64,000 nt of DNA from Octopus vulgaris (lineage: Eukaryota), in the NCBI GenBank assembly GCA_951406725.2, contig OX597818.1, positions 11,222,001 through 11,286,000 of the forward strand, given 5' to 3'. The translations under genes were made by a program, and so were the position numbers. Below are positions 9,050-64,000 of the stretch, piece after piece. The notes under the pieces were generated by a model. It had not been told where the DNA came from and searched no databases. It saw only the letters and a program-made list of their open reading frames with translations. Position 1 is the stretch's first letter. Each line of letters starts with the position of its first letter.

Positions 9050-10750
9050 ATACTAAATTTGTGGCTTTGCAAGAAAGTTAAGAATATTGCTGCAAGCTGG
9101 CTGAATCATTAGAGTATCAGGAAAAATGCCTTGCAGTATTTCTTCTGTCTTTTTGCATTTTGAGTTCAAATATATCTTAATTGGTTTTCCTCTTTTCAAG
9201 GTTGCTTTGATACATTTTTCTATGTCAAGTCTCTCTTTGATTTCTTTGTACTGTCTGTAGTTGTGTTTCCATTTGTTTATCACTTGCAGTATATAACTTG
9301 AGACTTTCCAGATACAAGAGATGTTTGATTGTTTTGCTATAGCATGTGTATCTATATTCTGTTCTGTTTAACATGTCAATTAAAGGTATTAATGCCAGAT
9401 AGAAAAATAGTGGAGCGAGGGAGTTTCCTAAGAATAATCCTCTTCTAATTGGGCATGGGTTTAGTTTCTATAATTTCCTTTCATTGTCTGTAACTGCAGA
9501 ATTGCTTGCAATTTATTCTTGGCTTGTTACCATACTCATGGCTATTGTTTCTATGTGCGGTAAATACTGTCAAAATGCTCTGTCCAGACTTTTCTTTTCC
9601 CTTTGGCAGTTTTCAGTTATGGCTTTATTGATCAATAACTGATGTTCAGAACCAAATGAGCCTTTGCTGCATTCTTCTGTTCTTCTGGAAATAGGTTCTT
9701 CCAGATATCTCTGTGTGTGCATGTGCACACACATACACACCCTCTCTCTCTCTCTCACTCAGTCACTCTCACACACACACAGTTATTATTGCAGTTAAGG
9801 CTTTGTAAGTTGTTGGGAAACATGTTATGAATCTGTAGTTTCATGGGTTTGTGGTTTCTGTAGATTTGTGGATTAAGATGGCTTTTCCTTTCATGAGCCA
9901 TTCAGATGTCTCTGGTTCTGTCAGTACCTCATTAAATTTCTCTGTCAATATTGTTTGTGTTTCTGTTAAAAATTTTAACCATGAATTGGGGACCTTGTCA
10001 TATCCTCATGCCTTCCATTTGTTTATTGTTTGCAGTACCTGGGTTAAGTGCTGTGTTTGTTTTGTTGAATATTTTCCACAGTGATTCCTTCATAGCCCTT
10101 ACTCCTTCCCAAAATTCTCCTCTTGCTGTTGGTGTTGCATTGACTTTTCTTTTATTTTTCCAAGTTCTTTGTAGAATCATTTTGCAGTGGAGTTGAACTG
10201 CTTTTAATTTTTGAATTACACTCAGTCCTAGAGTATGATAATCATGATTTCCTCCTTCAGAATTACCTATTTCTAGATCTACTTCATATTCCTTTTCATT
10301 TATATTATCATTTGTGCGGTTCAGGTTTAGTACTTTTTGGTCATTATTGTGCAGTCCTAGGGCATGGGTTTGCCATGTTTTGTTCTTTGCATTGTTTGTG
10401 TTGCTCATGTTCCATCTTCATATTTTACATTCTCAGTACTTATATCTTTGTTAGGTATTCTGTGATGATTAAATGCATGTTTGTAATGTATTCTTTCTTA
10501 TAAATGTGCTTTCAATTTCTGATATTTTTTTCATTCTGAGAATGTATTTTCTTAAGCTAGCTACTTTGTTGGAGTTCAGCAATATATTCAGATCTGGGTT
10601 ATTTTGCTTCCAAACTTGAATGGAATATACTATTGTGTTTTTGTTTTGTTGGTGGCTAACCACTGGCAAATAAACATATAGGAATAGAAACATATTCTTC
10701 TTGTGCCTATCTATATTCCTTTTTTTTTTCTGTTTTATTTGAAAGACTTG
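9050..10750 (-). mobile_element. Highly decayed non-LTR retrotransposon ORF remnant, R4/Dong-like (RLE clade) RT region
   Basis: Broken minus-strand translations: EHQLLINKAITENCQR..AFDS (~9560-9700), L-A-P-L-F-F-Y-L-A-L-I-P-L (~9380-9430), KHLLYLESLKLYTASDKQMETQLQTV (degenerate YMDDLKLY, ~9250-9330), IEKCIKATLKRGK, and N-terminal WKQNNP..NKVASLRKYILR. These recall R4/Dong-type ORFs. Confidence 0.6.
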
Positions 10751-43395: not shown

Positions 43396-43557
43396 TTCCT
43401 GAAAAACCATCAATAATGAGACAGCCTTGGTTTATTGGCATGTTAATTGGGACAATTGGTGGAACTGTGTGGATTGCTTTGTGTATTGTTAGCATTTGGT
43501 TGTGTCGCAAGAAGCACACCCAGAAGAAATTAATGGAACAAAGTGGAATGTATAGCA
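43396..43557 (+). CDS. robo: Robo transmembrane exon (VPEKPSIMRQPWFIGMLIGTIGGTVWIALCIVSIWLCRKKHTQKKLMEQSGMYS)
   Basis: Not in the ORF track. T-rich TTTCAG acceptor; A|GTAAGT donor; 162 nt, phase 1-1; hydrophobic helix followed by RKK; matches ROBO1 [31 protein letters not shown]. Confidence 0.95.
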
Positions 43558-44874
43558 GTAAGTTTTGAAATTATCTTTGATTCCTACAATCATGCCATCC
43601 ACAAAACTTGCTTTACCATTTGACCTTTCCCTCATCTCAGTCTCTATGCTATCTACTATAGCTTTCACCATGACATCTGCAATATCAATATCTATAATGC
43701 TATCCAGTGATGTATTGTATATGACATTGCTCTCCATACTTTTATAACATTGCTCTCCATATACCTTCTACCACATCTGGCACCATGCCATATACCAGAT
43801 CTCTTTTTCTATCATCTACCGCATCCATCTTCATACCATCTATCACACCTGTCTCCTTATCATTTGCTGCATACCATATACCATGTCAGTCTCCATTCTT
43901 TCTTCCACAGTTTTTTTGATTGGCATTTTATTTCATTTACAATGGAAAGATGAAAGGCAAAGTTGACCTCAATGGAATTTGGATTCAGGCTGCAAAGAAC
44001 CAGAAGAAATACATCTAAACATTTTGTTCATTACTCTAATAACTCTGCCAATTCCTCACCCTACCACATCTGACACTATACATCTAACACTTTATCATCT
44101 ATTTGTCTATATACTTCCTGCCATATCTACTCTGATACTATCTATCATAAATATCTCTTTACCAACTTCCACACCTTTCTACATGTCATACACAACTCTT
44201 CATATCAACCACTAAATCTGTCTTGCCATCCACCACACCTATCACCATACCTTCCACTACCACTCACCCTCATTCTATCAACCAAATCTAATACTACACT
44301 ATCTGTTATACCATCTGTTGCACCTGGCACAAGATTGTTTCTTTTATGTAATCTTTGTAACTACACCAGTGTATTACTGGTACATTTACATTTTGCCTTT
44401 CATTCCATTGAGGGTTTTTTGGGGGTTTTTTTTCTGGGAACATCAGTAAAACATTGAGAGAAATAGACCCGCTCTTACAAAGAAGGTCATGCGGTTTTTT
44501 AGGAATCTTTTTAGACTAACATAATCCTTGGTCTTATTGATTTTTAACAAATTTCTTTTCATGTGAAGTTGCAAGGTAGTGCCCACAGATTTTTTTTAAG
44601 GCTCACCCAATCATAGGGTATGTATAACTAGGGCATTTATTTGGTTAGTGTCAAGTTTATACAATTCTTTCCTGCCACTTCGCAAAAACTAACTTTCTTA
44701 TATTTAGAATGAATAACTTTGATTTCTTGAGACAACCTGTCTCACTTTGTAAGAAATGTAGAAGTTGTACTTAGCGATTGTACTGACAGAGAAAGATATT
44801 TATTTTCATTCTGAATCAGATTTACATGTACTGAAAGCCCATAGCCATATTAATCACAAGCTAACAGTTCATAG

Positions 44875-45105
44875 TTAAACCCTTTAAAATTTAAACTGGC
44901 CATATCCATCCCAGATATTCTACCTGTTGTATGTTCAAACTAGCCAGACTTAGCCTTTCACGCCTACCCTACAATGTCAATTTAAAAAAATGCACAATCA
45001 CATCATTGAAATCTCAAAGCTATGAGATAATGCATGATGAATATAAAACAATGTGAATAAACATACATAACATTTGACTGAGTAATCTGAATGCTAAAGG
45101 GTTAA
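44875..45105. mobile_element. piggyBac-type MITE
   Basis: TTAA(A)CCCTTTA..TAAAGGGTTAA ends (TTAA target, CCC/GGG termini); related copies at ~5648-5865 and 31615-32382. Confidence 0.75.
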
Positions 45106-45288
45106 AACAGAATCAAGAATGCATCATGTGAACCTTTCCATTACACACAATGTGTTTTGTTTCCTGTCAGAAAAAAACAGTCAAGGCAGATTCTTACTTT
45201 AATAAAAGGAACTTAGAATTTGAAATTAACACATTTATTAGTTTATATAATAATGTTTCGGATTTAGACACAAACCAGCAATACTGTA

Positions 45289-45665
45289 GTGGCTGTGTGG
45301 TAAGTAGCTTGTTTACCAGCCACATGGTTCCGGGTTCAGTCCCACTGCGTGACACCTTGGGCAAGTGTCTTCTACTATAGCCTCGGGCCAACCAAAGCCT
45401 TGTGAGTGGATTTGGTTGACGGAAACTGAAAGAAACCCGTCGTATATATTTATATATATATATGTGTGTGTGTGTGTGTTTGTATGTCTGTGTTTGTCCC
45501 CCTAGCATTGCTTGACAACCGATGCTGGTGTGTTTATGTCCCCATAACTTAGCGGTAGAATAAGTACTGGGCTTACAAAAGAATAAGTCCCGGGGTCGAG
45601 TTGCTCGATTAAAGGCGTTGCTCCAGCATGGCCGCAGACAAATGACTGAAACAAGTAAAAGAGAG
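45289..45665 (+). mobile_element. Young SINE family A copy
   Basis: CpG-rich, close to the consensus inferred from the other copies. Confidence 0.85.
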
Positions 45666-46649
45666 AGAAATACTAAGGAGAGAGGGTTAATTATTACTAT
45701 CGCATGCACCACCCCCCTCCTAAAGGAATAAAAAGTGAAGTTGACCGTGATAAGATTTAATCACAGAAAGAAGAAAAACCACAAGGTATTTTTTTAATAA
45801 TGTTGCAATGGTCTTGCTAGCTCACAGCCTTTATTAATTTCTGATTTAAACACAAGGCTTGAAATTGTTGAGGAGGCAGAAGTCAATTACATCAACCCTA
45901 TTGCTTAATTAGTACTGATCAACCCTGAAATGATAAAAGACAAAAGGGGCCTCAACAGCATTTGAAACACAGAATGTAAAGCCAGAAGAAATGCCACTAT
46001 TTTGTCCAACATGCTAATCACCATCATCATTTAGTGTCTGTTTTCATTGCTGGCATGGGTTAGATGGTTTGACTGGGGCTGGTAAACTGGGGAGCTGCAC
46101 CAGGCTCCAGAGTGTTTTGGCTTGGTTTCTATGGCTGGATGCTCTTCCTAATGCCAACCACTGCACAAAGTGTATTTGGTGTCTCTTACATGTCACCATC
46201 ACAGTGCTTCTTTTATGTCTCTGGCATGGGTGCCTTTTATCTGTCAGCAGTTTGGGTGCTGTTTGGCCACAACCGGTTTCACTTAGTTTGATGTGTCTTC
46301 TTAAGCACAACAATTCACTAGAAGATTCAGTCACTTGTCTTTCCCTCAGTGAAACTCAACATCCAAAGATCACATTTCCACACCTCATCCCACATCTTCC
46401 TGGGTCTACCTCTTCCACAGGTTCCCTCCAAATTTTGGTTCACAGCCAGCAAATCTGAAGGGAGAGGGCCAGTTAATACTATTAATCTCAGTACTTAACT
46501 ACCACTTTATTTTATCAACCCTGGAGGGATGAAAGGTAACGTTAATCTTGCCAGGATTTGAACTCAAAACTTAAATAGTCGAACTCTGTATTGTGTGGCA
46601 TTTTGTCTGATGCATCATCAATTCTGCAACAACAACAACAATAATGATG

Positions 46650-46680
<31 letters not shown>

Positions 46681-48324
46681 AGAACACTTAGGTTAGAGGT
46701 GAGGAAGAGTTTGAGATTAATGTAGTTCTTGGATAGGAAAATTAAACAGGATGTTTACTGTTGGATTTTCAAGAAATGCTAAATATATAATTTATGAAGT
46801 GATAGGAAGAGATGAGATGGGTACAAGAAGTGAATTTTTATTGCTTCAGAGTATTCAGAGAGACCAAACCAGCTGTAACACACAGGCTAGTGGTAGAAAT
46901 GGTTGTAAGAGATTAAAAAACAACAGCTGGCTGCCGTTGTTTATAAAATAAGAGTGTTGATGTATTCAGTTAATGCTCATATGATATTACAAGACCAAGC
47001 ATTGTTTAACTCCCAGCTCAATCCTGATTGAGGAGACTTATGAACTTAGGCATTCCAGCCACAGTTATCTCATATTTTACTTTTCTCATATGTCATATAG
47101 AAATACATTATCCATTGTATGCATCCTTTCTTTTTAAGACATTAAGGATTTGAGGGAGATTTGAATGCTGTTTCTAACTGTTTCAGCAAGCTCATAAACA
47201 TTTCCATATAAGCGAGTATGAGTACATAATTGTTGAATGACAATATGCCCTATTCATCTTCATTAATATTTGACATCCGTTTTCTATGCTGGCATCAGTT
47301 GGACTTCTTGACAGGAACTTGCAAGGTCAGGGGCTGCACCAGATTCCATAGTCTGTTTTAGCTTGGCTTCTATGGATGGATGCCCTTCCTAATGCCAATC
47401 ACTTTACTGAGTTTACTGGGTGCTTTTTACATGGCACCATCACCAGTGCTTTCTATGTTACCAGTGCCAGAATTTGTCATGTGGAACCAGTACTATTAAA
47501 TGTAATAGAATGAGTATTGATTAAAACTATGCTTTTGAAAGAAGAAAACCCTTCTGTGATTTATTTGAAGTTGAAACCGTCTGACTTGCAATCTTTGCAT
47601 AAAATTTAGGCACATATTCAATATTTAATTATATAGTCAATATTTTGACATAATTCAATATTTAAACTTGCCTCAAAATATAGGCATACCCAGTATTTAG
47701 GTATATTTAAAATATTCAAGCATATTCACAAAAACTCCAAGAAGTAATAGTGCAACTGGCTGATTGACTTTGACCTATGACAACTGGATCATCAGTATTT
47801 TAAAAAAAACACAGCTTTGAGATGGATGAGATGGTCATCAATAGGAAGAAAGAAAACTTTGAGGAAACTCATGGGTCACATGGCATCAAAACTTTTAGGA
47901 ATACCTGAAGACTATCAAACAGACATTGGGGTAACATAGCAGAACACTGAAAAACTACTTCTCAAACAAGCATGAGGTGGACTAACAAACTAACATGTAC
48001 GCATATCTCAACATTTCAGCATGCTACAGTAGCAAGGGATACATCATAATGTTGGCATACCTCAATATTAAAGCATTTCTCAAAATGTTGGTGTACCTCA
48101 GTTGGCATTTTTCAAGGTTGCAAGCTGGTAGAACCATTAGCATACTGAACAAAATATTTAGTTGCATTTTGTCCGTCCTTAAGTTCTGAGTTCAAATGCT
48201 GCCAAAGTCAACTTTGACTCTCATCATTTTGGGGTCTATAGAATAAGTAGCAGTTGAACAGGGGTCGATGTAATCAGCTTACCGACTCCCTAAAATTGCT
48301 AGCATTGAGCCAAAATTTGAAACC

Positions 48325-48362
<38 letters not shown>

Positions 48363-49136
48363 CATCTCCGCTTTAGAGAAAACCAAAACGTCTCATGCTA
48401 TTCATTTAAAAATTCCTGAGTAGAACTTATTATTATTATCTCTGCATTTGAAACTATTTTGAATAGTGAATTTCTTAACTTTGGCTTGTATTAGATAAGA
48501 ATAAACTATTTATTACTGTTACTAAATTTTCTACAGCCACCTTCACATTCTATGACTGCCATTGGGATCGATCATGTACCAGACAAGGGTTCTGGATTAT
48601 TTTTCCAGTTTTTTTTACTTAATTTTTGAGAGTGGTCGGGTTCATTTTTAGTATTCTTATTCATGAGAGCAATCAAGTTTATTTCAGATATTCTCATTTG
48701 AAAAATCATCTCTGGCTAATCGTTGACAGGATGTTGGTGTTGCTCTTGTTGTGGTTGTTGTCGTTATTATTGTTGTTGTTGTTGTTGTTATTATTATTAT
48801 TATTATTATTAAGGTGGTGAGCTGGCAAAATCATAAGTATGGTGGGCTAAATGCTTAGCAGCATTTCATCCATCCTTATGATCTGAGTTCAAACGCTACC
48901 AAGGTCAACTTTGCCTTTCGTCCTTTTGGGGTTGATAAAATAAGTACCAGTTGAACATTGGGGTCAGTGTAGTCAACTTAACCCTTTTCTTAAAATTGCT
49001 GGTTTTATGCCAAAATTTGAAACCTATATTATGAATTTCTCAAAATGTTCACATATCGCAGTGTTTAGGCATACATTAAGTATGGCTAACATCTTCATAG
49101 AGCCACTGAGACTTGCTGGTTGGCTAGTTTATATAT

Positions 49137-49191
<55 letters not shown>

Positions 49192-49209
49192 TAGATAGAT
49201 AGATAGATA

Positions 49210-49578
49210 TAGGTGTGACTGTGTGTTAAGTTGCTTCCCAACCACATGGTTCTGGGTTCACTCCTTCCTACCATATGGCACATTGGGCAAGTGTCTTCTA
49301 CTATCAGGCCAACAAAAGTCTTGTGATTGGATTCGGTAGACAGAAACTGAAAGAAGCCCATCATATATATATGTGTGTGTGTATCTTTATGTCTATGTTT
49401 GTCCCCATCGCCGTTTGACAACTGGTGTTGGTGTGTTTATGTCCCTGTAACTTAGTGGTTCAGCAAAAGCAACTGATAGAATAAGTCCTGGGGTCGATTC
49501 CTTTGATTGAAAAAATTTCTAAGCTGGTACCCCAGCATGGTTGCAGTTTAATTACTGAAACAAGTAAAAGATATAAGA
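49210..49578 (+). mobile_element. SINE family A copy
   Basis: Family A consensus. Confidence 0.8.
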
Positions 49579-50108
49579 CATATATATATATATATATATA
49601 TATTATTTCTATAGTGACGTTATGTATTTGGTTTATTTTACATCCGTGATATTGTTTGCGGTTATGTTTAAATATGCTATGGGTTGAAACAAGGATACTA
49701 ATACCAAATTAAATCCCAAAGCAAAAAAAGCAAAAGGTGAACGTACTATGAAGCCTTGTATAAATTTACACTATTCCTTGTAATAAATAAAACTTTAGTG
49801 GATGGATAAATTCAATCAAATAATTTGACCATGTGAACTACATCCATTTATTTATATTATTCTCTGCTTCTACCCTGTGGTATTCATTGCTGGTTTATCT
49901 TTTGTTGGTTTCATCGATGATATCATTCCTTTCATTTTAAATAGCAATCATCTCTGAAGAGAAAATGCAACAGCACTAGAAGAGGAAGGAAAAGTACTCC
50001 AATGACCTCTCTAATGTTGCCAGAAATTACTTTTACTATCGAATACAGATTAATGTTTGCCAATTTGATGCTGGAAAGTTCATGGCAAAGAAATGCAATT
50101 AAGTTGTA

Positions 50109-50160
<52 letters not shown>

Positions 50161-50832
50161 ACACAAATATTGAACATGGCTGAAACCATTCAGAATTACA
50201 ATTTTACTGCAGTTTCATCTGTACAATCAATATATTACACAGATACATACATATAAATACATGCACACACATGTGTGTGTGAGAGAGACACTCTGAGAGA
50301 GATAAGCCGATACATAAAAAAAAAATCAATATTTATAATACAACTTATTAACTGCTGAGTAACTGAAAACTTGTTGAAAATGGCACTAAAAGCATCGGAA
50401 ATTATTTTGCATGAAGAAAATTTAGATAATACAGAGAACAAGTAAACTCAGGATAAGGTTTAGATAACACATCACTTGTTTTACCTTCCTCTTCACCCAA
50501 GTATTTATTTTTCCCCCTTTTTATTGGTTTCAATCATTGGACTGCAGTGATACTGAGGCCCTGCCTTCAAGGGATTTGGTCTATTATATCGACCCCAGTA
50601 CTTGAGTCTCATAATCAATCTGAATAGATATCAGATGACTGAGTTAGCATACTGAGTTACCTCCCTTAGGGAATTCACATGCTTTAGGAGTCAGTACCAT
50701 CTAACTGTCTTTGGTGATATTTTGCTCAGAGCAGTCCTGGTTCAGCTGATCTTCTTTCATTACTTTTAACCTATGATCAGTGACATTCCAGTTATGTTCA
50801 TTATTTTTTTTCTGTAGCCATAGTATTTATAT

Positions 50833-51255
50833 AGGTGCAGCCATGACTGTGTGGTAAGAAGCTTGCTTCCCAACCACATGGTTTCAAGTTCAGTCTCACT
50901 GCATGGCACCTTGGGCAAGTGTTTTCTACTATATATCTCGGGCCAACCAATGCCTTGTGTGTGGATTTGGTAGATGAGAACTAAAAAAGCTCATTGTATT
51001 TATATATGTGTATATATCTATGCATCTGTGTCTTTGTGTCTGTGTTAGTACCCCCCCCCCCCCATCACTGCTTGACAACTGGTTTTTGTGTGTTTACATC
51101 CTCATAACTCAGTAGTTCAGCAAAAGAGACTCATAGAATAAGCACTAGGCTTAAAAAAGTTCTCAGGTCGATTTGTTCAATTAAAATCCCCTCAAAGCGG
51201 TATCCCAGCATGGCCTCGGTCAAATGCCTGAAACAATTAAAAGAATGAAAGAATA
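50833..51255 (+). mobile_element. SINE family A copy inserted in a minus-strand family-H repeat
   Basis: Family A consensus; H-like flanks on both sides. Confidence 0.8.
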
Positions 51256-51599
51256 TCAAAACTGCATTATTGAACGTCTTTATCCTTTTTCACATACTTT
51301 AAGAAGCATTTGGTTGCTATTTGTTCTGAAAGTGTCTCATCAGTTCAATACATTTTAAAGTAAAGGGTCACCTGAAATATAGCATAACAGCCAAAATATA
51401 ACATCTAGTAAATTAGCATTATAAATTTTTTTAAAATGGTTTGATGTCAGATTTATATCAGGATACATGAGAAATTTAATTCAAATGATATTATAGTTAT
51501 TTATACTACCATCATTCAAAATATGCAGAAAAAAATTTAATTCCCATGAAATCGGATATTTTAATTGAAATCTATTTTTTCGTTTCTTTGTTGTGGCAG

Positions 51600-51630
51600 C
51601 GCCTCTTCAAAAACAGGAAGAACAAGCTCG
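51600..51630 (+). CDS. robo: Robo 31-nt juxtamembrane cytoplasmic exon (TPLQKQEEQAR)
   Basis: Long T-rich tract plus GCAG acceptor; CG|GTAAGT donor; open in the phase-1 frame required by the TM exon; exits in phase 2. Confidence 0.8.
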
Positions 51631-51952
51631 GTAAGTAAAACAAAATATATTCTTTCAAAGTCTTTCAATATTAGAACTATTTACCATTCTACAGCCATTA
51701 GCATTTGAATGGTTTTGTGACTTTTACATTGTTCTTTTATACTATGTGGCATCAGCATTTTTTTAAATATTTTTTGTTACCCATTTCCCTGCCTTCCCCT
51801 CTCTTACCCTCTTTCTCTCTCTTCCTCTTTCTCTGCCCCTCTCTTTCTCTTTATTTCCATCAATCAAATGCTTTTTTCCCCATGTTAATGAACTTGTTTA
51901 CATTCAACTTAAAAAATCTAAATTATCAAGTGTCAAAATCGTTGCTCTGTAG

Positions 51953-51967
51953 TGTTGAGCATATATT
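51953..51967 (+). CDS. robo: Candidate 15-nt Robo microexon ((R)VEHI(L/F)), phase 2-2
   Basis: CGTTGCTCTGTAG|TGTTGAGCATATATT|GTAAGT; multiple of 3, no stop; UGC close to the 3' splice site. Prediction only. Confidence 0.45.
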
Positions 51968-53046
51968 GTAAGTTTGTGTAATTTGGGTAGAAATTTATAT
52001 TAAGAGCCAACTCAATGATGCAATTGATATGTATATCAACAAATATAGTGAATGTGAATCCTCAATTTGAATATTTAGGTTTCTTTTTATTCTTAATTTC
52101 ATGTGTATTTGTTTTTATGTTATTTTTTTGTTGTTTTTGCACAAAAGTAACAAACAAATCCAAGTATTACTACTACTACTAATAACTACTACTACTACAA
52201 TAAAACAATAACAACAATGAAAAGTCTTCTACTGCTATTGATGATAATAATGATTGCTTTTATTTGCCACGAGGACAGCAGATGAAGGAACATTACATGG
52301 ACATTTAATTATAATAAAGATATTGATGATGTATGATTTTTTAAAATATTTTTAAATATTTTTATGAGTATGATGATAACAACAGCATAATATTTGATGA
52401 TGATGACGATGGTAGTGGTGGTAGTAGTGACGATGATGATGATGATGATGACAATCACGATGATGGTGGCGACGATGATGAGGACAACAACAATGATGAT
52501 GATCATAACGATGATGCTAATGCCAACACAATTACTAATGATGAACCGGGAAAAATCTACTAAAACAATTAAAATCTGAGCTGTTCATTTTACAATCCCA
52601 CAGAACTATTAAAATCTAAGATTTAAACTAAAAATCATGTTATCTTTTTCTGAAATGTCACTGAAATGTTAACGTTACATGTGTCTTTTTAACTTACTTC
52701 AGAAATGTCTAACTTCCTCTCCTTTAAAAAACAGATGTCTCCTCCTTCCTAATCTGTTATTCCATTATTATTATTATTATCATTATTATTATTATTATCA
52801 TTATTATTATCATTATTATTATTATTATTCAGTTTATGGTTTCTTCCTTTCTGACTTCAGTCTCTTCTAATCTCTCATCTCCTCTCAGAACTTCTTCTCA
52901 GTTTCTTTTCATTCACTATTATCAGCAGCAACATCACCCCATCCTACAGACACATTGTCAAACAAACAAGAGTACCTTCATATGGTCATTCAACCTGCTA
53001 GAAATATCAAACAATTTTTTTTTTTAATCACAACATACCATACCAT

Positions 53047-53430
53047 AGGCACAGGCATGGCTGTGTGGTAAGAAGCTTGCTTCCCAATCACATGGTTCTG
53101 TGTTCAGTCTTATTGCGTGGCACCTTGAGCAAGTGTCTTCCACTATAACTTCAGGCCAACCAAAGCCTTATATATATATATGTGTGTGTGTGTGTGTGAG
53201 TATTATATATGTATGTATATATATGTGTGTGTGTGTGTGTGAGCATATATTTATGTCTGTGTTTGTCCACTGCCTGACAACCGGTGTTAGTGTGCTTATG
53301 TCCTTGTAACTTAGCGGTTCAGCAGAAGAGACCAACAGAATAAGTACCAGACTTTTAAGAAATAAAAATAACAAGTACTGAGATTGATTCATTCAACTAA
53401 AAATTCATCAAGGTGATGCCTTAGTATGGC
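53047..53430 (+). mobile_element. SINE family A copy
   Basis: Family A consensus, preceded by a family-H head. Confidence 0.8.
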
Positions 53431-53987
53431 ATTTTAGTTTGGTGCATGTTCTAGTAGCAGTAGCTTCCCAATTGATGGTGTTGTTAGTGTTGTAGAGGCC
53501 TCACTGTGGGCAGTGGTGGAAGACTGGCTGTAGGTTGGCAGCACTGGTGGTGATTACTGTAGTAGTAGTCAGTGATTGTAGTAATGGTAAATGCTATGGT
53601 AGCAGTTGGTGAAGGCATTGTCTACATTGGTGTTGTTGGTGATGGTGGCAAATGCCATGGTAGTATTTGGTGGTGGTATTGGTGGTGTATGTCCTTGTAG
53701 TAATCTTTGGAAAGTTGCTACTCACCAGATATATGCCATATGATTGCATATGAAGATAACAGGTCATATTACATACAAATGCACAGAGAGAATTAAATAT
53801 CTTCTTGTACTTTTAGCTGTGTAGCGCTGAGCAGAATTACAGTTAAAAATTTGCCCAGCCTTATTTATCAAATGCAGGTTTACATTCACAAGTACATTGT
53901 ATCAGAAAGGACCATGATGAAAGGTTAGGAGCTGACACTCATCAAACCCATACCAGTACTGAAATATTGACATTAATTGATTATGAT

Positions 53988-54278
53988 CATTGGTTCTCAA
54001 CCAGGGTCCATATAAGATTTTTATGAGGTCCAACACATCAAAATAGTAAATTAGGGATCCACAATAGTATTTTAAGGGCCTCTGAAAAACATTTTGCTTC
54101 AGATGTATGTATTGGTATGTATTGCTGCAAAAAACAGCTGGGTTTCTCTCTTTACATAGTTCAACCTTCACAATGTAAAAAAAAAAAAAAACTTTAAAAA
54201 ATAGTTTTAAACACCAAATGACAAGAATAAAATAGTATTTAAAGAGGTCCATAGATAAAAGATGGTTGAGAACCCTTG
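53988..54278. mobile_element. hAT-type MITE related to 28805-29026
   Basis: Ends CATTGGTTCTCAACCA / TGGTTGAGAACCCTTG. Confidence 0.65.
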
Positions 54279-54896
54279 GATTGTGGTGATAATTACACAC
54301 ACACATGTCTTTATAAGAAGCTGATGATCCCCTTTGTTGCCACTCAGTTATTTTTGCCTTATGAAAGGATTCAGGCAAAAATTATTTTCAAACTTCTTGT
54401 CATCTGAATGATCACGTATGACAAGAAATTCTGAGTTGGGGCACAGTGAATCAATCCTATATGAATATGGACATAGAGTCAGTGACATGTATTGAGTACT
54501 TTTTCAGACATGTGTGTGTGTGTGTGTGGTTGAAGACGTTTGCTTCCCAACTATGTGGTTTCAAGTTCAGTCCCACTATGTAGAACCTTGGGCAGATGAT
54601 GTCTTCTGTAGCTCTAAGGTGACCAAACTTGTATGTGGATTTAGTAGACAGAAGCCAAAAGGCTGGTCATGTATATAAGTATTGATTTCAAATTTTGGCA
54701 CAAGGGTAGCAGTTTTGGGGGAGTGGATAAGCCAATGACTTTGACCCCACTTGCTCAGTTGATACTTATTTTATTGACCCCAAAAGGATGAAAGTCAAAG
54801 TTGACCCCAGTGGAATTTGAACTCAGAACGTAGACATGGGCAAAATGCTGCTAAGTATTTTGTCTGGTGCAGTAACAATTCTGCCAGCTCACCACC

Positions 54897-54929
<33 letters not shown>

Positions 54930-54930
<1 letters not shown>

Positions 54931-55200
54931 CGCCTTACTGGCACATGTAAAAAGATTTGAGCGAGGTCATTGCCAGTACTGCCTGACTGGCCCCCGTGCC
55001 AGTAGCACGTAAAAGGCACCCACTACACTCTCAGAGTGATTGGCGTTAGGAAGGGCATCCAGCTGTAGAAACTCTGCCAGATCAAGATTGGAGCCTGGTG
55101 CAGCCATCTGGTTTGCCAGCCCTCAGTCAAAACTGTCCAACCCATGCTAGCGTGGAAAGCAGACGTTAAACGATGATGATGATGATGATCATCATCATCA
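54930..55200 (+). mobile_element. Young SINE-like family C copy
   Basis: GGCGTTAGGAAGGGCATCCAGCTGTAGAAAC..GACGTTAAACGATGATGATG. Confidence 0.8.
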
Positions 55201-55805
55201 TTATATATATATATATATGACTAATAGAATGGACTAACATATTTTGTTGCATAATATTACAATTGTTTCATCACCATTTTACTAGAAGATCATTGCAGAA
55301 ATATTATTACATAATACATGAAACAACACATCATATTGATATTATTCCAGCAATACTGGCAAGGGGCAATTTTGCAGGTTTATCAATGAAACTGGTTTGC
55401 TAAACTGAACTTTATCCTACTTAGTATATACCTCACATTGATAATGTTATAATCACAGTTTAAACAAAAAAATAAACTTGAGTACATTCTAAGCTACAAC
55501 ATAAATTGATCTGTCAAGAAATGGGGTGAACGAAGTAAGCAAAAAAATAAATAAATAAAAACAATTAGAAAAAGCTTATAAATAAATGAATAAAAAAATA
55601 TACAAAATACATATAATAAAACTTATCTTAATGTCTGGAGAGTTTCATATCTCTTAATTGTTAGTGTCTCCCCTAATGTCATTAGGTCGTCTGACCACAC
55701 TAGTCAACTTGAATTGAAATAAAGTGTGTGTATATATATAATATATATATAGATATGTGTGTGTATAGATAAATAGATATGTATGTGTGTGTGTGTGTAT
55801 ATATA

Positions 55806-55847
<42 letters not shown>

Positions 55848-57065
55848 CTCTCACTGCACTCTAGAGAGTGGTTAGTGTTAAAAATATTATATTTGGCCAT
55901 AGTAACAATGCCAAAGCAGAGACATTGGAGCAAGACATGGTTTGTAGACTTGTTAGATCCTGTTGATTTGTCCAATCTATACCAGCATGATTATGATAAT
56001 TATGTAGGTAAACAAGTAGACAGACTGAGAGATTGATAGACCTTGCACACACTATATTACCTATCTACCAATCTACATGAATGTATATATTACTTCACTG
56101 CCTGCATACATATAAGTACAATTTTATATGAATCTCACAATAACTAATTACAGCAATTCCCACACCCTTTCATGCACCTGTGTGCAGGTATCATTGTGTT
56201 GTTAAGAAGTTTGGAACAACATGGCCCTGAGTTTGATCTCCCCACCACAGCATCTTGCAAAGGTGTTTTACCTTAGTTTCAGGTACATTAATATCTTGTG
56301 TGTGAAGTGTAGTAGATGAAAGCCATGAAAGTTTTGTGTGTTTATCTGTATAAAATACTTTGTGATGTTTATATCTGTAAATGATAGGTGAGCTTTGGGT
56401 TTGATATAATTGGTTACGGCTCTATAAGGTCATGTGTCTGTGTGGCTGCAGTTTCATGACTGGAACCACTAAAAAACTGAAGGATATAAAATGTCTTGCA
56501 AAATATGTTTGCGCAGACATGTGTGTGTGTGTGTCCATAATATAAACATTGATGTATTTATTAGAATTTAAGCAATACTTGGTTAAGATGAGTGGCAGGA
56601 TGATGAGTAATTTTCTAATCATTCAACTTACAGAAGCTAGACTGTTCTCTAACATAGTCCAGTATCACACAGAAATTTGATGTTTAAGATTTACAACAAC
56701 CCTAGCAATTAGCTATATTATGTAAGTGGTTAAGATTTTATCTACGATGTAGGTAAAACACTTAGAAGTACAAGGAAGATAGTAGAACTAAACAACTACC
56801 TCTCCATGAAAGAAATGTTTCACCTTACAACAAATATATTCCTATGAGAGAAATTATTACAAGTATGCTCTGCAAGTTGGCCATATTTGTAAATGTCTTC
56901 TGCATATAATTTATCTAAAATCTTAACCATCTATTTTATAGCTAATTACTGTACACACACATATTTATTGGCAGCTAAAATTTTATCTATAACATATCTT
57001 CAGTTATATCTGGAAGTGGAATATCATCATCACCACCACCACCATCATCATCATCATCATTTGGT

Positions 57066-57660
57066 TTGGTGGAGTGGCAGAACTGGTAAATCAGAGGGCA
57101 AGATACCCTGTTATATTTACGTATGTCCCTTTAGATTCTATATTCAAATTTTATTGATGTCAGCTTTGCTTTCATCCTTCTTAAAATAAAAACAAGTCAA
57201 GTATAAAGTTGGTTTCATTGACCATAATGGTTTCTCCATAAATTTGAGACCTTGTGTTAATGTTGGAAATTACCATTATTTTTATTATTATTATTAAGGT
57301 GGAGAGCTAACAGAATCATTACCATGCCGGAAAATATATTTAGTGGTATTTCTTCCGTCCTTACGTTCTGAGTTGAAATTCTGCTAGGATTGGGTTTGCT
57401 TTTCATCCTTTCAGGGTCGATGGAATAAGTATCAGTTGAGCACTGGGGTCGATGTAAGCTACTGTCCCCACCACCCAATATTTCAGGCCTTGTGCCTATA
57501 GTAGAAAGTATTTCGTCTGTCTTCATGTTCCACCGATGTCGACTGTGCCTTTCATCCTTTCAAGGTCAATAAATTAAGTACCAGTCAAGTACTGGGGTCG
57601 ATATAATCAAATATTCCCTCCCCCCAAAAAATTTCAGGCCCTGTGCTTAAAGTAGAAAGA

Positions 57661-57720
<60 letters not shown>

Positions 57721-58743
57721 GTTATCATTATTATTATGAAGGTGGCAAGCTGGCAGAATCATTAGCACACCAGACAATGGCAGTTCTTCTTTTATGTTCT
57801 GAGTTCAAATTCAAATGCTGTCAAGGTCAACTTTGCCTTTCATATTTTCGGAGTTGATAAAATAAGTATTAGTTGAACAATGGAGTCAATATAATCGACT
57901 TAATTCCTCCCCTGAAATTGATGGCCTTGTGCCAAAATTTAAAACCATTATAATTGTTGTTGTTGTTGTTGCTGTTATTATTGTTATTATTATTATTAAG
58001 GTAGCAAGCTGGTAGAATCATTAGCATGTCAGGCGAAATGCTTAGTGGTATTTTGTCTGTCGCTACGTTCCAAGTTCAAATTCTGCCGAGGTCAACTTTG
58101 CCCTTCATCCTTTTAGTACCACTCAAGTACTGGGGTCGATGTAATTGATTGTTCCCCTCCCCACAAAAATCCAGGCCTTGTCCCTACAATAGAAAGGATT
58201 ATTATTATCATTGAGTGAGAGAGCAGTGCATGCCATCAAAGTGACACTGGGGTAAAATATACGAAGCCCAGTATACCCATCATGACTACCTGTCTGATAA
58301 GGGTACACCAGGCACATGCTTCAGAACCATATGTGCGCAACATATTGATCTCATATCAAGATAAACAGCACACGACCTTGCAGGTGGGGCCCTGTTAGAA
58401 TTTTCTTCTGGTCGAGTAGCCCATCCTGCCCAAAAGATCCCTGAATAAGAATTGTTTAAGGATGTTGAACAAACAACCCATGTTTCCTAAGGTGAATTAT
58501 CCAAACCTCTAAGATGCTCCCCCACTACTTCTGCTCATGATCGGAGATGCACATATCGTCAGCCACTAAGGGACATGCTCAACTGGTTAAGGCCAAACAA
58601 ATGACAAGCAAATCTGTGGTATTGAGCAGAATATTTGTTGTAGCCCATCTTTTATACCAAGACAAAACAATGTACATGATAACACTTCCAATCAGTTAAG
58701 ATCAGCAGCCACAAGAGCCACTACCTGGTACTGCATCATCATC

Positions 58744-58790
<47 letters not shown>

Positions 58791-59600
58791 CATTATTATT
58801 AACAACATGCCAAGCTGGCAGGATCATTAGTAAACTGGACACAATACTTAGTGGCATTTCTTCTTGCTTTATGTTCTGAGTTTAAATACTGCTGAGGTTG
58901 AATTTGCCTTTAATTCTCTCAGGGTTGATAAAATAAATACTAGCCAAGCAGTGGGGTTTGTGCAATCACCTTACCTAACCCACTTAAAATTGCTGCCCTT
59001 GTGCTAGGATTTGAAACCGTTATGATAGTGAGCTGATGAGATCATTACCACACCAGAAAAAAAATGCTTAACATCGTTTCTTTTGGCTCTTTATGTTCTG
59101 ATGCCACTGAAGTCAACTTTATGTTTCATCTTTTGGAGTTGATAAACTAAGTACCAGTTGAGCACTAGGGTTGATGTAATCAACTTTCCTTCCCTTCAAA
59201 ATTGCTGACCTTGTGCCAGAATTAGAAAGGATTATTATTGATACTAAAGACATGAGCTAGCAGAATTGTTAAAGTACTGAAAAATATGCTTTGCTACATC
59301 TGTTCGAGCTCTTTACATGTTGAGTTCAAATCCCTCCAAGGTCAATTTTGCTCTTCTTTCATTTGATTAACCCCTTCTCCTTAAAATTGTTGGTAGACTC
59401 AATAAAGCAGTTAACAAAGTATGATACAGTATTTAGTCATGTCCTCCTTCTAAATTTTAGGTTTAAATTCCAGCAGAGTCTTCTTTGCTTTTTATTCTTC
59501 TGGGGTTAATAAAGTAAGCAGTAATGATGTATTGGGTTTGATGAGATTGACCACTCCCCACCCCAAAGTGTACAGGCTTGTGCCAATGAAGAAAGTATAT
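57066..59600 (+). mobile_element. Head-to-tail cluster of ~9 SINE family B copies separated by (ATT)n tails, with a family D element at 58212-58740
   Basis: Heads AAGGTGGnnAGCTGGCAGAATCATTAGCA or core segments at ~57066, 57297, 57510, 57738, 57998, 58805, 59025, 59250 and 59390. Confidence 0.8.
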
Positions 59601-59827
59601 TATTAACTGCCTCTAATATCGTACCAAATCCTCAGTGTTAAAATATCTTCCCAAGGCTTTTAGTATCTCCTCTCCTGCCATCCATTACTCACTCTTTCCC
59701 ATGTTTTACTTCTGCTTCTCTTTCTCTCTATCTCTCCTTCTTCCCCCCCATTCTCTCTTTCTGTGTATCGCTTCCTTATTAGCTTTACCAGTTATTTTTA
59801 CTGTGATTTTTCCCTGTCCTTGTCCAG

Positions 59828-59860
59828 ATATGCTGTTGTACCTGCTGGCTATATGAAATG
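59828..59860 (+). CDS. robo: Candidate 33-nt Robo microexon ((R/L)YAVVPAGYMK(W/C)), phase 2-2
   Basis: Long pyrimidine tract, then TTTTCCCTGTCCTTGTCCAG|ATATGCTGTTGTACCTGCTGGCTATATGAAATG|GTGAGC; strong sites, in frame, no stop. Confidence 0.65.
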
Positions 59861-60184
59861 GTGAGCTAAACCGGTGATCAATTGCTTTCCTTTTTTTCTA
59901 TTTCAAATCACTCCTCTGCCAACACCTCTACACTGACACCATCACTGCCACCACACCTATCTTCCTACTTAGTTTATTTCATTATTTTTGTTGTTTTTTT
60001 TCTTTCTGCATTCTTCCTTTTATATCTGTTTACTTTCAGTTTTAATTCTTCTTTATTGTTGTATTCCTACCCATCTCAGCATCGTCTATTTCCTGGCAAA
60101 TTTCAAAATTTATTTTTAAGTGTTTTTTTTTCAGTTCTGTATTTTCTTATTTTTTTTAAAAACTATTTTATTATTTCTTATCAG

Positions 60185-60211
60185 TCAAGTGTTAGATGGT
60201 GTCATGTGTCT
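60185..60211 (+). CDS. robo: Candidate 27-nt Robo microexon ((R/C)QVLDGVMC(L)), phase 2-2
   Basis: TTTTATTATTTCTTATCAG|TCAAGTGTTAGATGGTGTCATGTGTCT|GTAAGC; multiple of 3, open. Confidence 0.5.
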
Positions 60212-60416
60212 GTAAGCTGTACTCTAGAAACCAAACCTGTGGGCTAGGTTTCAAATCCTCACAATTCTCTTTCTCTTAAACCTCCAATACAACAACCATT
60301 TCTTCTTCTTCTCCTTCTTCCTCCTTCCTCTTTAGAAAAAGCATGAAAAACGCAACCTCTTATCTTTCATTTTTCCTCTTTTTAAATAAACCTTTAGTCT
60401 TGTTGTTTACATAGCA

Positions 60417-60474
<58 letters not shown>

Positions 60475-60600
60475 TATTGTTGTTGTTGTTATTGATTGTT
60501 CTGTATTTCCTTATCTATACTTGTTAGTTTTTTATCATGGAAAGTTTGCAACATATTATTTATTTGAGATTTGAGTTATGTAGTAGTAGTAGTAGTAGTT

Positions 60601-60647
<47 letters not shown>

Positions 60648-60960
60648 TTTTGTCATTGCAGAATATTTTTCTTTCTTTCTATCTTTCCCCTTTTATTTTC
60701 GTTGCATTTTCCTCGTGTTTCTCTTCCAAAACCACCATGACCACCACTAGTGGAATGTTTTTATTTATATATTTATTTTGCATTCTTTTGAAATTATTAT
60801 TCACATGTTGATTATATATTCGTTTTGCATGGAAAGGTAAAATATCGCAATGATTATTGTGAACCAGTTTTCTCTACTATAGTTATTTATTCATTTATTC
60901 AATGAATTAATTTCTGTAGGCTGGAAAATAGTATTTTTCTTTCTCTCTCTTTTATTTCCT

Positions 60961-61225
60961 TTAACCCTTTCAATGCCAATCATCTTGATAGCATAACTGA
61001 TTCCATTATACAAAACCTCTCGTTTCAAAGTGTTCATATTTAAATTAACATTTCATCATAATTTTATGTAAGAACTTTTTTGCATTATGTTTCAAGCACC
61101 AGTTTGATAATGACAAAAGTTAGTTAATTTGATTAAATTCCTCCCATTTATTAATTATTTTCAAAATTAATTGAAATATATAGAAAGTGATTTTCATAAG
61201 AAATATATAATCACACGAGGGTGAA
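60961..61225. mobile_element. Probable piggyBac-type MITE, second family
   Basis: Starts TTAACCCTTT and ends in degenerate GAGGGTGAA; the interior resembles ~34900-35060. Confidence 0.45.
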
Positions 61226-61616
61226 ACAATATTATTAATTCATTTTTGTGTTTCATTTCATGATTTTTGTTTTTTTTTTAAAGTATGATCCAATTCTGCA
61301 ATGCCTTAAGCTCTCTTACAATAATTATGAATAAACAAGTAGTATAAAATTAGAAACCAAACGTTTTGTTTGAGGAAGATTCAAAATACCATTGTTGATA
61401 AAAAGAAGTGGTGTACTAGGTTATTGAAAACATTATCATTGGCTCAAGCGCTGCTCAAAAATAGTCATTGTGTTATTCTCATAAGCAGAACACATTATTC
61501 TGCTTTTCTCACTTTTTTAATATGACAATAAATTTCATTCCTTCTTCTGGATTAGTTGCTTAATCCAGGTCAGTTCCAATCAAGCTGTCACATGACCATA
61601 TTCATAAGTTTTGATT

Positions 61617-62101
61617 ATACTGTGTAACATGATTTTTGTCCTTGGGTAGCAAAACTGTTATTTCTGATTTGATTGGCCCAAAAGTATGAAAAATGGCTAA
61701 TATTTCTTTCAAACTTTGCTTTTATTACATTCATTCAAACCCTGGAGAATCTCTCTCAATAGATGGCTATGATGTTCCCCCACTGATCCTGCTCATGATC
61801 AGAAATGCACATATTGTCAGCCACTAAGGGACATGCTCAAGTGGTTAAGGTCAAGCAACTGACAAGCAAATCTGTGGTATTGAGCAGAATATTTGCCATA
61901 ACGATATTTCTGCTTCAGCAACTCGGTGCTGGATCTGTCTGAAATGTATTGGGAAATAGGTCAGTTTGGAAACATTGATGTCCAGATCACAAAAGCAAAG
62001 TTTCAAGAGAACAGTAGTCATTTGATTTCTAGGTAGAAACAAATAGAAAATAACACTTACTGGCCAAAGACAAAAAAAAAAAAAATTTGTTACGCAGTGT
62101 T
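61617..62101 (+). mobile_element. MITE family E copy
   Basis: TIRs ACTGTGTAACA / TGTTACGCAGT (10/11); interior colinear with 6115-6610. Confidence 0.7.
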
Positions 62102-63364
62102 ATTTAATCTTAGAGTATCTAAGACCACATTTCTATTGTTTACTTTTCCTTTTTTTAAAAAATATGATGGGCTGAGATTTGCAGGAGATTTTACTGCTGT
62201 TTGTAGCAAGTCTAATAATCATATAAATGTTCTTTCAAGATTGAAAAGATAACTGTGGGAAAAACATTAAACTCTGATCCTGTGTTTAAAAAATACTTAT
62301 TTTGGTAATATGAAAATATGCAAATTTACCAAAAACTTCACCACCCATGGCTTAATAGTCATGGGAAAATAGATGTGAAATAGAGACATGAATAGAAAAT
62401 GATACTGTTGATAATAAAAGTAATAAAATTATTGAAAATATGAAAAAATAGTGTACTTTTACGTGTCATCAGATGAAATAGAGACAACATTGAAGGCAGG
62501 GCTTACGATTATAGACAATATACTACCCAGAACTTCACTCTATTTCGTTTTACAGTATATCAAGTTGTACTTGTTTTCTGTTTATTTGCAACCCAATTCC
62601 AGCCAGTGTTGATTACTCTTAGCCTACTAATTTTAGTGACTAACCTTGTGAACCAATGAGGGACTTTCTATACTGTTGGTCAACTTGTTTGCATTACCAG
62701 CAAGATTTCCCTCAAATTACTCCCCCATATCTTGAATAAAGAAGGACATATTGGACAATGTAGTCTCTGATATATGACCATTGATCATAGGTCTCTTTGA
62801 TCTCTGCTGAGCTTAGGCTAAACTACAAAACCTGTCAGATGGGTGAAATTATCCAATCTTCTTCTACCCCTTATACAGTTTCTGCTATTTGAAATGAGTT
62901 TTTATTTGGGCTTTCATGTTCGATTAGAAATAGCTGGTTTCTAATGATACTTCAAATAAGTTTAATTCCTGAAACTTCTGTATTTATCTTCCATCTCTAT
63001 CTTACATTCTACCCAGAAATATATTTACCTGACAATAGTTAAACCTGCAGCCCACACACTCTCTCTCTCTCCCTCTCTCTCTCCCTCTCTCTCTCTAACT
63101 ATTTCCCCTCTTATCTATTCCTCCATCTCTCTGCTTAATCTTTTTTCTATCAATTTGTTTTGCTCTCTCTCTCTCTCTCTCTCTCTCTCCCATTCCTAAT
63201 ATTTGATATTTCTACCATATCTTTCTATCTTCTACCTACGTATCTATTAAACATAGAAATGAGAAAATCAGAGTATTGATGGCTGGAAGCTTCAATTTTA
63301 ATAAGTTAGCAAACTAATGCATAGTACTTTCACCTGTTGTAAATTTGTTCAAACAGGCACACAC

Positions 63365-63395
<31 letters not shown>

Positions 63396-63434
63396 TAGTC
63401 TCTCAAAGCATAGTTGTACTTTTCTTTTATTTAG

Positions 63435-63470
63435 GTATATAAATACTAAAGTAATCAATGCACAGCTTTG
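63435..63470 (+). CDS. robo: Candidate 36-nt Robo microexon ((R/W/L)YINTKVINAQL(W/C)), phase 2-2
   Basis: GTACTTTTCTTTTATTTAG|GTATATAAATACTAAAGTAATCAATGCACAGCTTTG|GTAAAG; multiple of 3, open. Confidence 0.5.
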
Positions 63471-63570
63471 GTAAAGGAGTGTGTAGAAAATGTCACATGT
63501 GTTAATAGCTAACTATGTAGCTACACAATTATTCAATTCTCTTTTCTATCTCTGTTTCACATCCATTCAG

Positions 63571-63611
63571 GATAACTAGTGGCCCCATTTGGATACCTTT
63601 GCAGAACTGTA
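63571..63611 (+). CDS. Possible further Robo cytoplasmic exon (ITSGPIWIPLQNC); 3' boundary uncertain
   Basis: Strong pyrimidine-rich acceptor (..TTTCACATCCATTCAG) and open in phase 2, but only weak donors (GTAGTG 63609, GTGTGT 63612). Confidence 0.3.
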
Positions 63612-64000
63612 GTGTGTTCAACCTGTCTATCTGTGTCTATGTGTGTGTGTGTGTTGGTATATTGTTGAATATTTAGCACCAAATCAACCCTGATCAAGCA
63701 AACCTACATTCAAAGCCATTTTCCACCCTGACTAGCTATCCTTTTCATTGGCACAATATATCTAGGTCCACATTAACTAGTACATCTGTCTTTTCCGAGA
63801 TGGTTGGGTATGATTTGAAAGAAATTTCACTGCTATTTTTAAGAGATCAAAATCTTTTTTTGTGTTACATGTTGTCACATCATCATCATCATCATCATCA
63901 TTTAATGTTTGTCTTCCATGCTGGCATGGGCGGGACAGTTTGACTGGAGCCGGCCAGGCAGAAGCCTGCACCCATTACCTATGTGAATATTAACATTTCC

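Follow-up and report, generated by a model that had tools for sequence, protein, structure and literature searches.

Locus and data

The window, meaning the whole stretch of DNA analysed, is 64,000 nt of Octopus vulgaris (contig OX597818.1, here G000:C5:11222001-11286000). It holds part of the gene of the axon-guidance receptor Robo, and the analysis concerns variation by splicing of the cytoplasmic tail just past the transmembrane (TM) helix, where four short segments had been read in an initial annotation as an array of microexons. A further 200 kb downstream were added to the window. Exons were mapped by chaining against protein P0013 and by peptide matching, and isoforms were compared in a census of 41 Robo proteins comprising 14 Octopus (7 O. 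sinensis, 6 O. bimaculoides, 1 O. vulgaris), 10 Sepia-like and 17 other mollusc proteins. The cluster members listed were 15 of 29 for Octopus and 15 of 17 for the Sepia-like group, of which 1 and 5, respectively, were dropped as lacking the TM region. The label Sepia-like was assigned by distance: six Logan proteins show 20-26 mismatches to S. pharaonis P0024 and two show 91-99, the distances to Octopus being 235-307. A splice-site matrix was built from 13 exons of the Octopus Robo gene.

Judged by its sequence, the gene containing the window exons is Octopus Robo. The TM exon is 100% identical over 53 amino acids to the O. sinensis roundabout homolog P0003, and chaining joins the window exons to P0013 from the Ig4 region up to and including the TM segment; the initial annotation was right about gene and region (cephalopod Robo, juxtamembrane cytoplasmic). 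One cytoplasmic motif, which we take to be CC1, is common to all TM-containing full-length mollusc matches except P0023. P0003 and P0020 each contain five I-set and three fn3 stretches, and with a single TM helix the architecture is that by which Robo receptors are defined, namely five Ig and three FN3 domains and one TM helix (PMC10084454). The features of the juxtamembrane region within the window are as follows.

43396-43557, plus strand: Robo TM exon, 162 nt, exit phase 1; identified by identity to P0003, boundaries from chaining to P0013.
51591-51599, plus strand: optional 9-nt 5' extension of the 31-nt exon, adding three residues, with a predicted TG 3' splice site at 51589-51590.
51600-51630, plus strand: 31-nt exon, exit phase 2, constitutive in all cephalopod isoforms listed, with a 69-nt AG-free zone upstream; exon and phase, already proposed, were recovered by chaining.
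51953-51967, plus strand: candidate 1, 15 nt, unsupported; weak acceptor, UGC at -10, strong GTAAGT donor, matrix score 8.8.
59828-59860, plus strand: candidate 2, the 33-nt exon, real; next after the 31-nt exon in exon order, tblastn match 59823-59861, YxxV motif.
60185-60211, plus strand: candidate 3, 27 nt, unsupported and likely chance; matrix score 14.6, with a probability of 0.47 for one as good in the interval.
63435-63470, plus strand: candidate 4, 36 nt, unsupported and likely chance; donor score 1.2, with 4.59 equal or better segments expected.

One real exon among the four candidate segments

The coordinates, lengths (15, 33, 27 and 36 nt), AG/GT ends and donor hexamers given for the four segments proved correct on re-checking, as did the absence of stop codons at their junctions: none of the 32 combinations of the four segments with the 15-nt microexon found downstream gives one. 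In the proteins the four behave differently. The 33-nt exon is carried by all 14 Octopus proteins and by none of the 10 Sepia-like or 17 other mollusc proteins listed, and candidates 1, 3 and 4 (15, 27 and 36 nt) occur in none of the 41 proteins. Of the four proposed microexons, the 33-nt segment is a true exon; the other three lack support without being disproved. No alternative use of the 33-nt exon was seen, since none of the 14 Octopus isoforms listed skips it.

By its distribution the 33-nt exon looks like an exon of the octopus lineage rather than a switch, and in octopus it is likely always included. It would have been gained in the octopus lineage, or else lost or skipped in decapodiforms. 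Its inclusion would add a YxxV motif, of the type used in AP-2 sorting; in the fly, Robo signalling and AP-2-dependent endocytosis require tyrosine-based AP-2 motifs (PMC4559387).

The chance rate of such segments was estimated by counting qualifying segments, defined by a YAG acceptor, a length of 6-51 nt in a multiple of three, no stop codon and a GTRAG donor. Over 264 kb, the plus strand has 87 of them and the minus strand 118, which corresponds to 4.0 and 5.4 per 12 kb. The interval 51631-64000 holds 14 GTRAG donors with repeats left in, and only four of them close a qualifying segment, three of which are earlier candidates (the donor of candidate 4, GTAAAG, lies outside the GTRAG pattern); the statement that most such donors pair with a suitable acceptor was therefore not upheld. 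By the matrix, minus-strand segments scoring at least as high as the candidates are expected 6.65 (15-nt), 0.13 (33-nt), 0.63 (27-nt) and 4.59 (36-nt) times per 11.87 kb. A UGC together with a long AG-exclusion zone was found in none of the four: candidate 1 alone has the UGC and its AG-free zone spans only 20 nt, and candidates 2-4 are without UGC and have AG-free zones of 19-48 nt.

The transcript and database searches added no isoform. Contigs over 43481-52200 from four runs guessed to be RNA were swamped by repeats and gave no exon junction among the 15 of 435 joints and 24 of 3150 loose ends listed, a result that says nothing either way. Three very high-copy repeats (45227-45808, 48719-49009 and 50756-51046) lie in the intron 3' of the TM exon and are heavily represented in these contigs. 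Short transcript fragments gave one match among 46 candidates, which was a genomic fragment. A neighbour search returned no further cephalopod cluster, and HMMER on 50% representatives gave six matches and no new cephalopod isoform. One metagenome-contig match (n=1) to a degenerate pattern of the 31-nt exon, without Robo context, was judged to be chance.

A 9-nt shift at a likely TG acceptor

Eleven of the 14 Octopus proteins listed, and 2 of the 10 Sepia-like ones, carry three residues inserted at the joint of the TM and 31-nt exons. The insert is missing from the remaining 3 Octopus and 8 Sepia-like proteins, so that both forms exist at the protein level. Within the 8-kb intron no AG..GT-flanked 9-mer able to encode the insert exists, and a separate 9-nt microexon was ruled out as its source on this ground. 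Just two 9-mers could supply the sequence: that at 45287, which lacks splice flanks, and that at 51591-51599. The inserted bases are hence the nine directly before the canonical 3' splice site, whose AG lies at 51598-51599. The dinucleotide preceding 51591 is TG, and the donor is fixed at 43557/43558 (GTAAGT). Given a single encoding site, a fixed donor and a TG flank, the intron would end in TG. The window contains no N, and the acceptor region is single-copy in the assembly. The arrangement is that of a TG-AG tandem, in which a TG at most 28 nt from the AG has a pyrimidine at -3 and the intron a GT donor: here the distance is 9 nt and position -3 is T.

From these features, a TG acceptor is probably used for the insert. 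The end of the intron would be set by a branch point (candidate at about -39) together with the AG at 51598-51599, and in the second step the upstream exon could be ligated to the TG site lying 9 nt before it, in the manner of human TG-AG tandems. Use of the TG would add three small hydrophobic residues about 20 residues past the membrane. Comparison of the proteins suggests that the acceptor of the 31-nt exon may have shifted more than once, and the TG may survive from an earlier acceptor. In other molluscs, P0052 and P0053 differ from P0006 by a single residue where the counterpart of the 31-nt exon begins. Adenosine-to-inosine (A-to-I) editing was ruled out as a source of the odd acceptor, as it cannot convert TG into AG; the cases reported convert AA into AG-like ends (PMC4176328).

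The insert might instead come from an ordinary AG-AG tandem acceptor, with the TG of the assembly G000 arising by misassembly, allelic variation or recent substitution. Four points speak for this. The TG was seen in one assembly only, and a change from AG to TG by error, allele or lineage in G000 would leave a plain AG-AG tandem. The TG is followed by T, whereas human TG acceptors prefer a purine, and such acceptors are rare, being known from 37 human introns (PMC2374985). The O. vulgaris model P0020 is also without the insert; however, it equally lacks the 15-nt microexon and the three downstream cassettes described below and is hence merely a minimal model. The AG-AG explanation further requires a change at exactly this base, and both the spacing and the -3 pyrimidine are those of documented TG-AG tandems. 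It is accordingly held to be unlikely. An exact look-up of six intron-spanning open reading frames for the acceptor in other DNA found none of the six and was uninformative; in the contig comparison over 43481-52200, 40 of 89 differences were listed.

Optional elements downstream of the window

Further exons of the tail were located beyond the window.

L002:6443-6457 (G000:C5:11302443-11302457): 15-nt exon, about 16 kb downstream.
L004:4216-4280: 65-nt exon, 3' of the 15-nt exon.
L005:3306-3356: 51-nt exon, phase 1, 3' of the 65-nt exon.
L005:4740-4939: exon with the putative CC1 motif.
L011:2216-2263: cassette of 48 nt, phase 0, after the putative CC1.
L012:3558-3608: cassette of 51 nt, phase 0, after the putative CC1.
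L012:5001-5051: cassette of 51 nt, phase 0, after the putative CC1.

The 15-nt exon is carried by 13 of 14 Octopus and 2 of 10 Sepia-like proteins listed, with four of its five residues shared; it is thus short, a multiple of three, alternative and conserved. It has a 121-nt AG-free zone, a UGC at -10 and a CAG/GTAAGA donor, and no minus-strand segment in 264 kb reaches its score. A UGC near the acceptor and a long AG-exclusion zone are features of exons that depend on the eMIC domain (10.1101/2021.02.24.432780), and both are present here. In neurons, the eMIC domain of Srrm234 would turn on inclusion of the exon, and the tail would gain two tyrosines. Four Logan proteins that lie 0-2 residues apart show the 15-nt exon and the 3-residue insert each both present and absent. 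The four Sepia-like combinations are not taken as proof of independence, because the two events lie only 31 nt apart and an assembler may have joined the paths. In scallop proteins, a similar short tyrosine-bearing stretch was seen by eye at the place of the 15-nt exon.

The three cassettes (A-C) occur as ABC, AB, B or none in models of both O. sinensis and O. bimaculoides, and as A alone in O. sinensis, so that five of the eight possible combinations are modelled in Octopus; they occur in none of the Sepia-like (n=10) or other mollusc (n=17) proteins listed. This trio is the closest counterpart to the array that had been expected in the window. The 51-nt exon at L005:3306-3356 encodes two tyrosines and is present in all 14 Octopus proteins and in none of the Sepia-like and other mollusc proteins; it is apparently a second octopus-specific tail exon. 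The 33-nt exon, the 15-nt exon and the other supported exons are nearly all already present in RefSeq models. What does hold is the broader view of a cephalopod Robo tail diversified by short in-frame pieces, through the 9-nt shift, the 15-nt microexon and the three cassettes.

An unannotated 12-nt AG..GT segment at L001:8761-8772 (G000:C5:11294761-11294772) has the top splice score of the region (20.8), which no segment on the minus strand of the 264 kb equals. It is in frame after the 31-nt exon, would create a TGA after the 33-nt exon and occurs in none of the 41 proteins; it is possibly a poison or mutually exclusive microexon. Two larger optional pieces were noted at approximate positions: 35 residues arising from an internal GTGAGT donor (L016:201-401), and a 64-residue cassette exon that is skipped in 3 of 14 Octopus models (L019:3560-3757). 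Within the window, a 42-nt AG..GT segment with a score of 16.8 (9763-9804) lies in the intron separating the Ig4 exon from the Ig5 exon, adjoins a microsatellite and is absent from the alignment of the listed isoforms.

Weighing of the explanations

The explanation preferred here, at a probability of about 0.68, is an ordinary long Robo intron containing one real, likely constitutive 33-nt exon and three likely chance segments, in a gene whose tail is varied by the 9-nt shift at a likely TG acceptor and by the 15-nt microexon. The combined effect would be a modest tuning of the spacing, tyrosine content and trafficking of a disordered tail, not a recognition code of 16 states.

Besides the doubts about the TG acceptor given above, several points weigh against this explanation. 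The isoform evidence consists of gene models and assembled contigs and holds no junction reads, it covers only the cluster members listed (15 of the 29 from Octopus, 15 of the 17 from the Sepia-like group), and the six O. bimaculoides isoform patterns duplicate six of the seven O. sinensis patterns and are perhaps not independent of them. Exons of 15-27 nt are often missed by annotation pipelines, and the absence of candidates 1 and 3 from the proteins is consequently weak evidence. The annotated cassettes A-C score 10.9-12.0 by the same matrix, below the 14.6 of candidate 3, so that a low matrix score is no bar to being an exon. At the loosest threshold, the interval of the four candidates holds 16 plus-strand and 4 minus-strand segments. 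Candidate 1 has, besides its UGC at -10, 17 UCUC/CUCU words upstream. As to the proposed sorting signal of the 33-nt exon, the fly YLQY motif lies at residues 1090-1093 and is not membrane-adjacent (PMC4559387).

Alternatively, candidate 1, candidate 3 or both, perhaps with the 12-nt segment at L001:8761-8772, might be real, rare, neuron-restricted microexons missed by annotation. Candidate 1 joins its UGC and UC-rich tract to a GTAAGT donor, and by chance alone a UGC with an equally strong donor should turn up only 0.18 times in 11.87 kb; the candidate may be a rare neural microexon. Candidate 3 outscores the annotated cassettes, the 12-nt segment outscores every minus-strand segment in 264 kb, and the interval shows the plus-strand excess of 16 to 4. 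However, the thresholds for that excess were derived from the candidates themselves, and across the whole 46.6-kb juxtamembrane region it vanishes (34 plus-strand and 31 minus-strand segments). The AG-free zone of candidate 1 is short, and all three segments are missing from the 41 proteins although the same RefSeq models show the 15-nt microexon and the 9-nt shift; the pipeline is thus able to see tiny events in the Robo gene. Such missed microexons are given a small chance.

A broader form of this proposal is rated somewhat lower still. It would see a modular, splice-coded Robo tail, with a TG acceptor kept since the octopus-cuttlefish split, a conserved neural microexon, unannotated neuron-restricted microexons and an octopus-specific, tyrosine-bearing cassette trio after CC1, whose cell-type combinations would diversify the responses of a single Robo gene to Slit. 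The unannotated microexons would be candidates 1 and 3 together with the 12-nt segment, which by its stop codon would truncate or destroy the receptor.

The independently spliced array with up to 16 juxtamembrane isoforms, as put forward in the initial annotation, is hardly tenable: the four segments are indeed multiples of three, stop-free in every combination, and include one real exon, but that exon is never skipped in the 14 Octopus isoforms, the three others occur in no protein, the donor of candidate 4 is very weak, and the supported optional elements lie elsewhere.

Significance and comparison with known systems

A literature search found no paper on cephalopod Robo isoforms, subscription journals being mostly outside its coverage; one study that includes O. 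bimaculoides (10.64898/2026.09.05.749416) does not contain the word 'robo' in its main text as far as available. Two features appear to be undescribed: the likely TG acceptor, common to octopus and cuttlefish-like sequences, and the gain, specific to octopus, of short exons in the tail. If confirmed, the 9-nt shift would be a molluscan, apparently long-conserved and frequently modelled addition to the short list of TG acceptors. Octopus would likewise have gained five short in-frame exons in the Robo tail (33, 51, 48, 51 and 51 nt), none of which was seen in the cuttlefish-like or other mollusc proteins of the census; this would be a possible route to more varied axon-guidance signalling. The interest is limited in that RefSeq models already include the exons and neither mechanism is of a new kind.

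The closest parallels to the 9-nt shift come from human and fly. In human genes, 39 TG acceptors have been reported in 37 introns, all at most 28 nt from an AG and six of them at 9 nt, and some of them give the predominant form and are conserved as far as chicken or fish (PMC2374985). The octopus layout, TTG followed by 9 nt ending in CAG, matches these six. With the tandems of RYK, DLG4 and SMARCA4 (PMC2374985) it shares the GT donor, the TG 9 nt before the AG, the pyrimidine at -3, the in-frame 3-residue insert, the use of both forms and an apparent conservation between distant species. Unlike them, the octopus case concerns an axon-guidance receptor, was derived from protein isoforms and one genome, and has T rather than a purine after the TG. 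Fly annotation lists 23 GT-TG introns, 22 of them with a similar alternative splice (PMC4528330).

Compared with microexons regulated by eMIC/Srrm234 (10.1101/2021.02.24.432780), the 15-nt exon at L002:6443-6457 is similarly a multiple of three, alternative and conserved in protein, with a long AG-free zone and a UGC near the acceptor, whereas the 33-, 27- and 36-nt segments lack the UGC.

As regards Robo itself, Robo1 exon 18 is a short juxtamembrane exon. It is among the alternative exons of mammals (PMC6687390). The NOVA-regulated vertebrate microexon that had been invoked as a parallel differs in position, as the mammalian exon 6b, which NOVA represses, is extracellular and lies between Ig3 and Ig4 (PMC6687390). 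Mouse Robo2 exon 21 (42 amino acids) lies between CC1 and CC2 and raises repulsion (PMC6687390), and its position after CC1 resembles that of the octopus cassette trio, with one exon in Robo2 and three cassettes in octopus. What octopus Robo would share with mammalian Robo1 and Robo2 (PMC6687390) is the tuning of Robo signalling by small in-frame exons.

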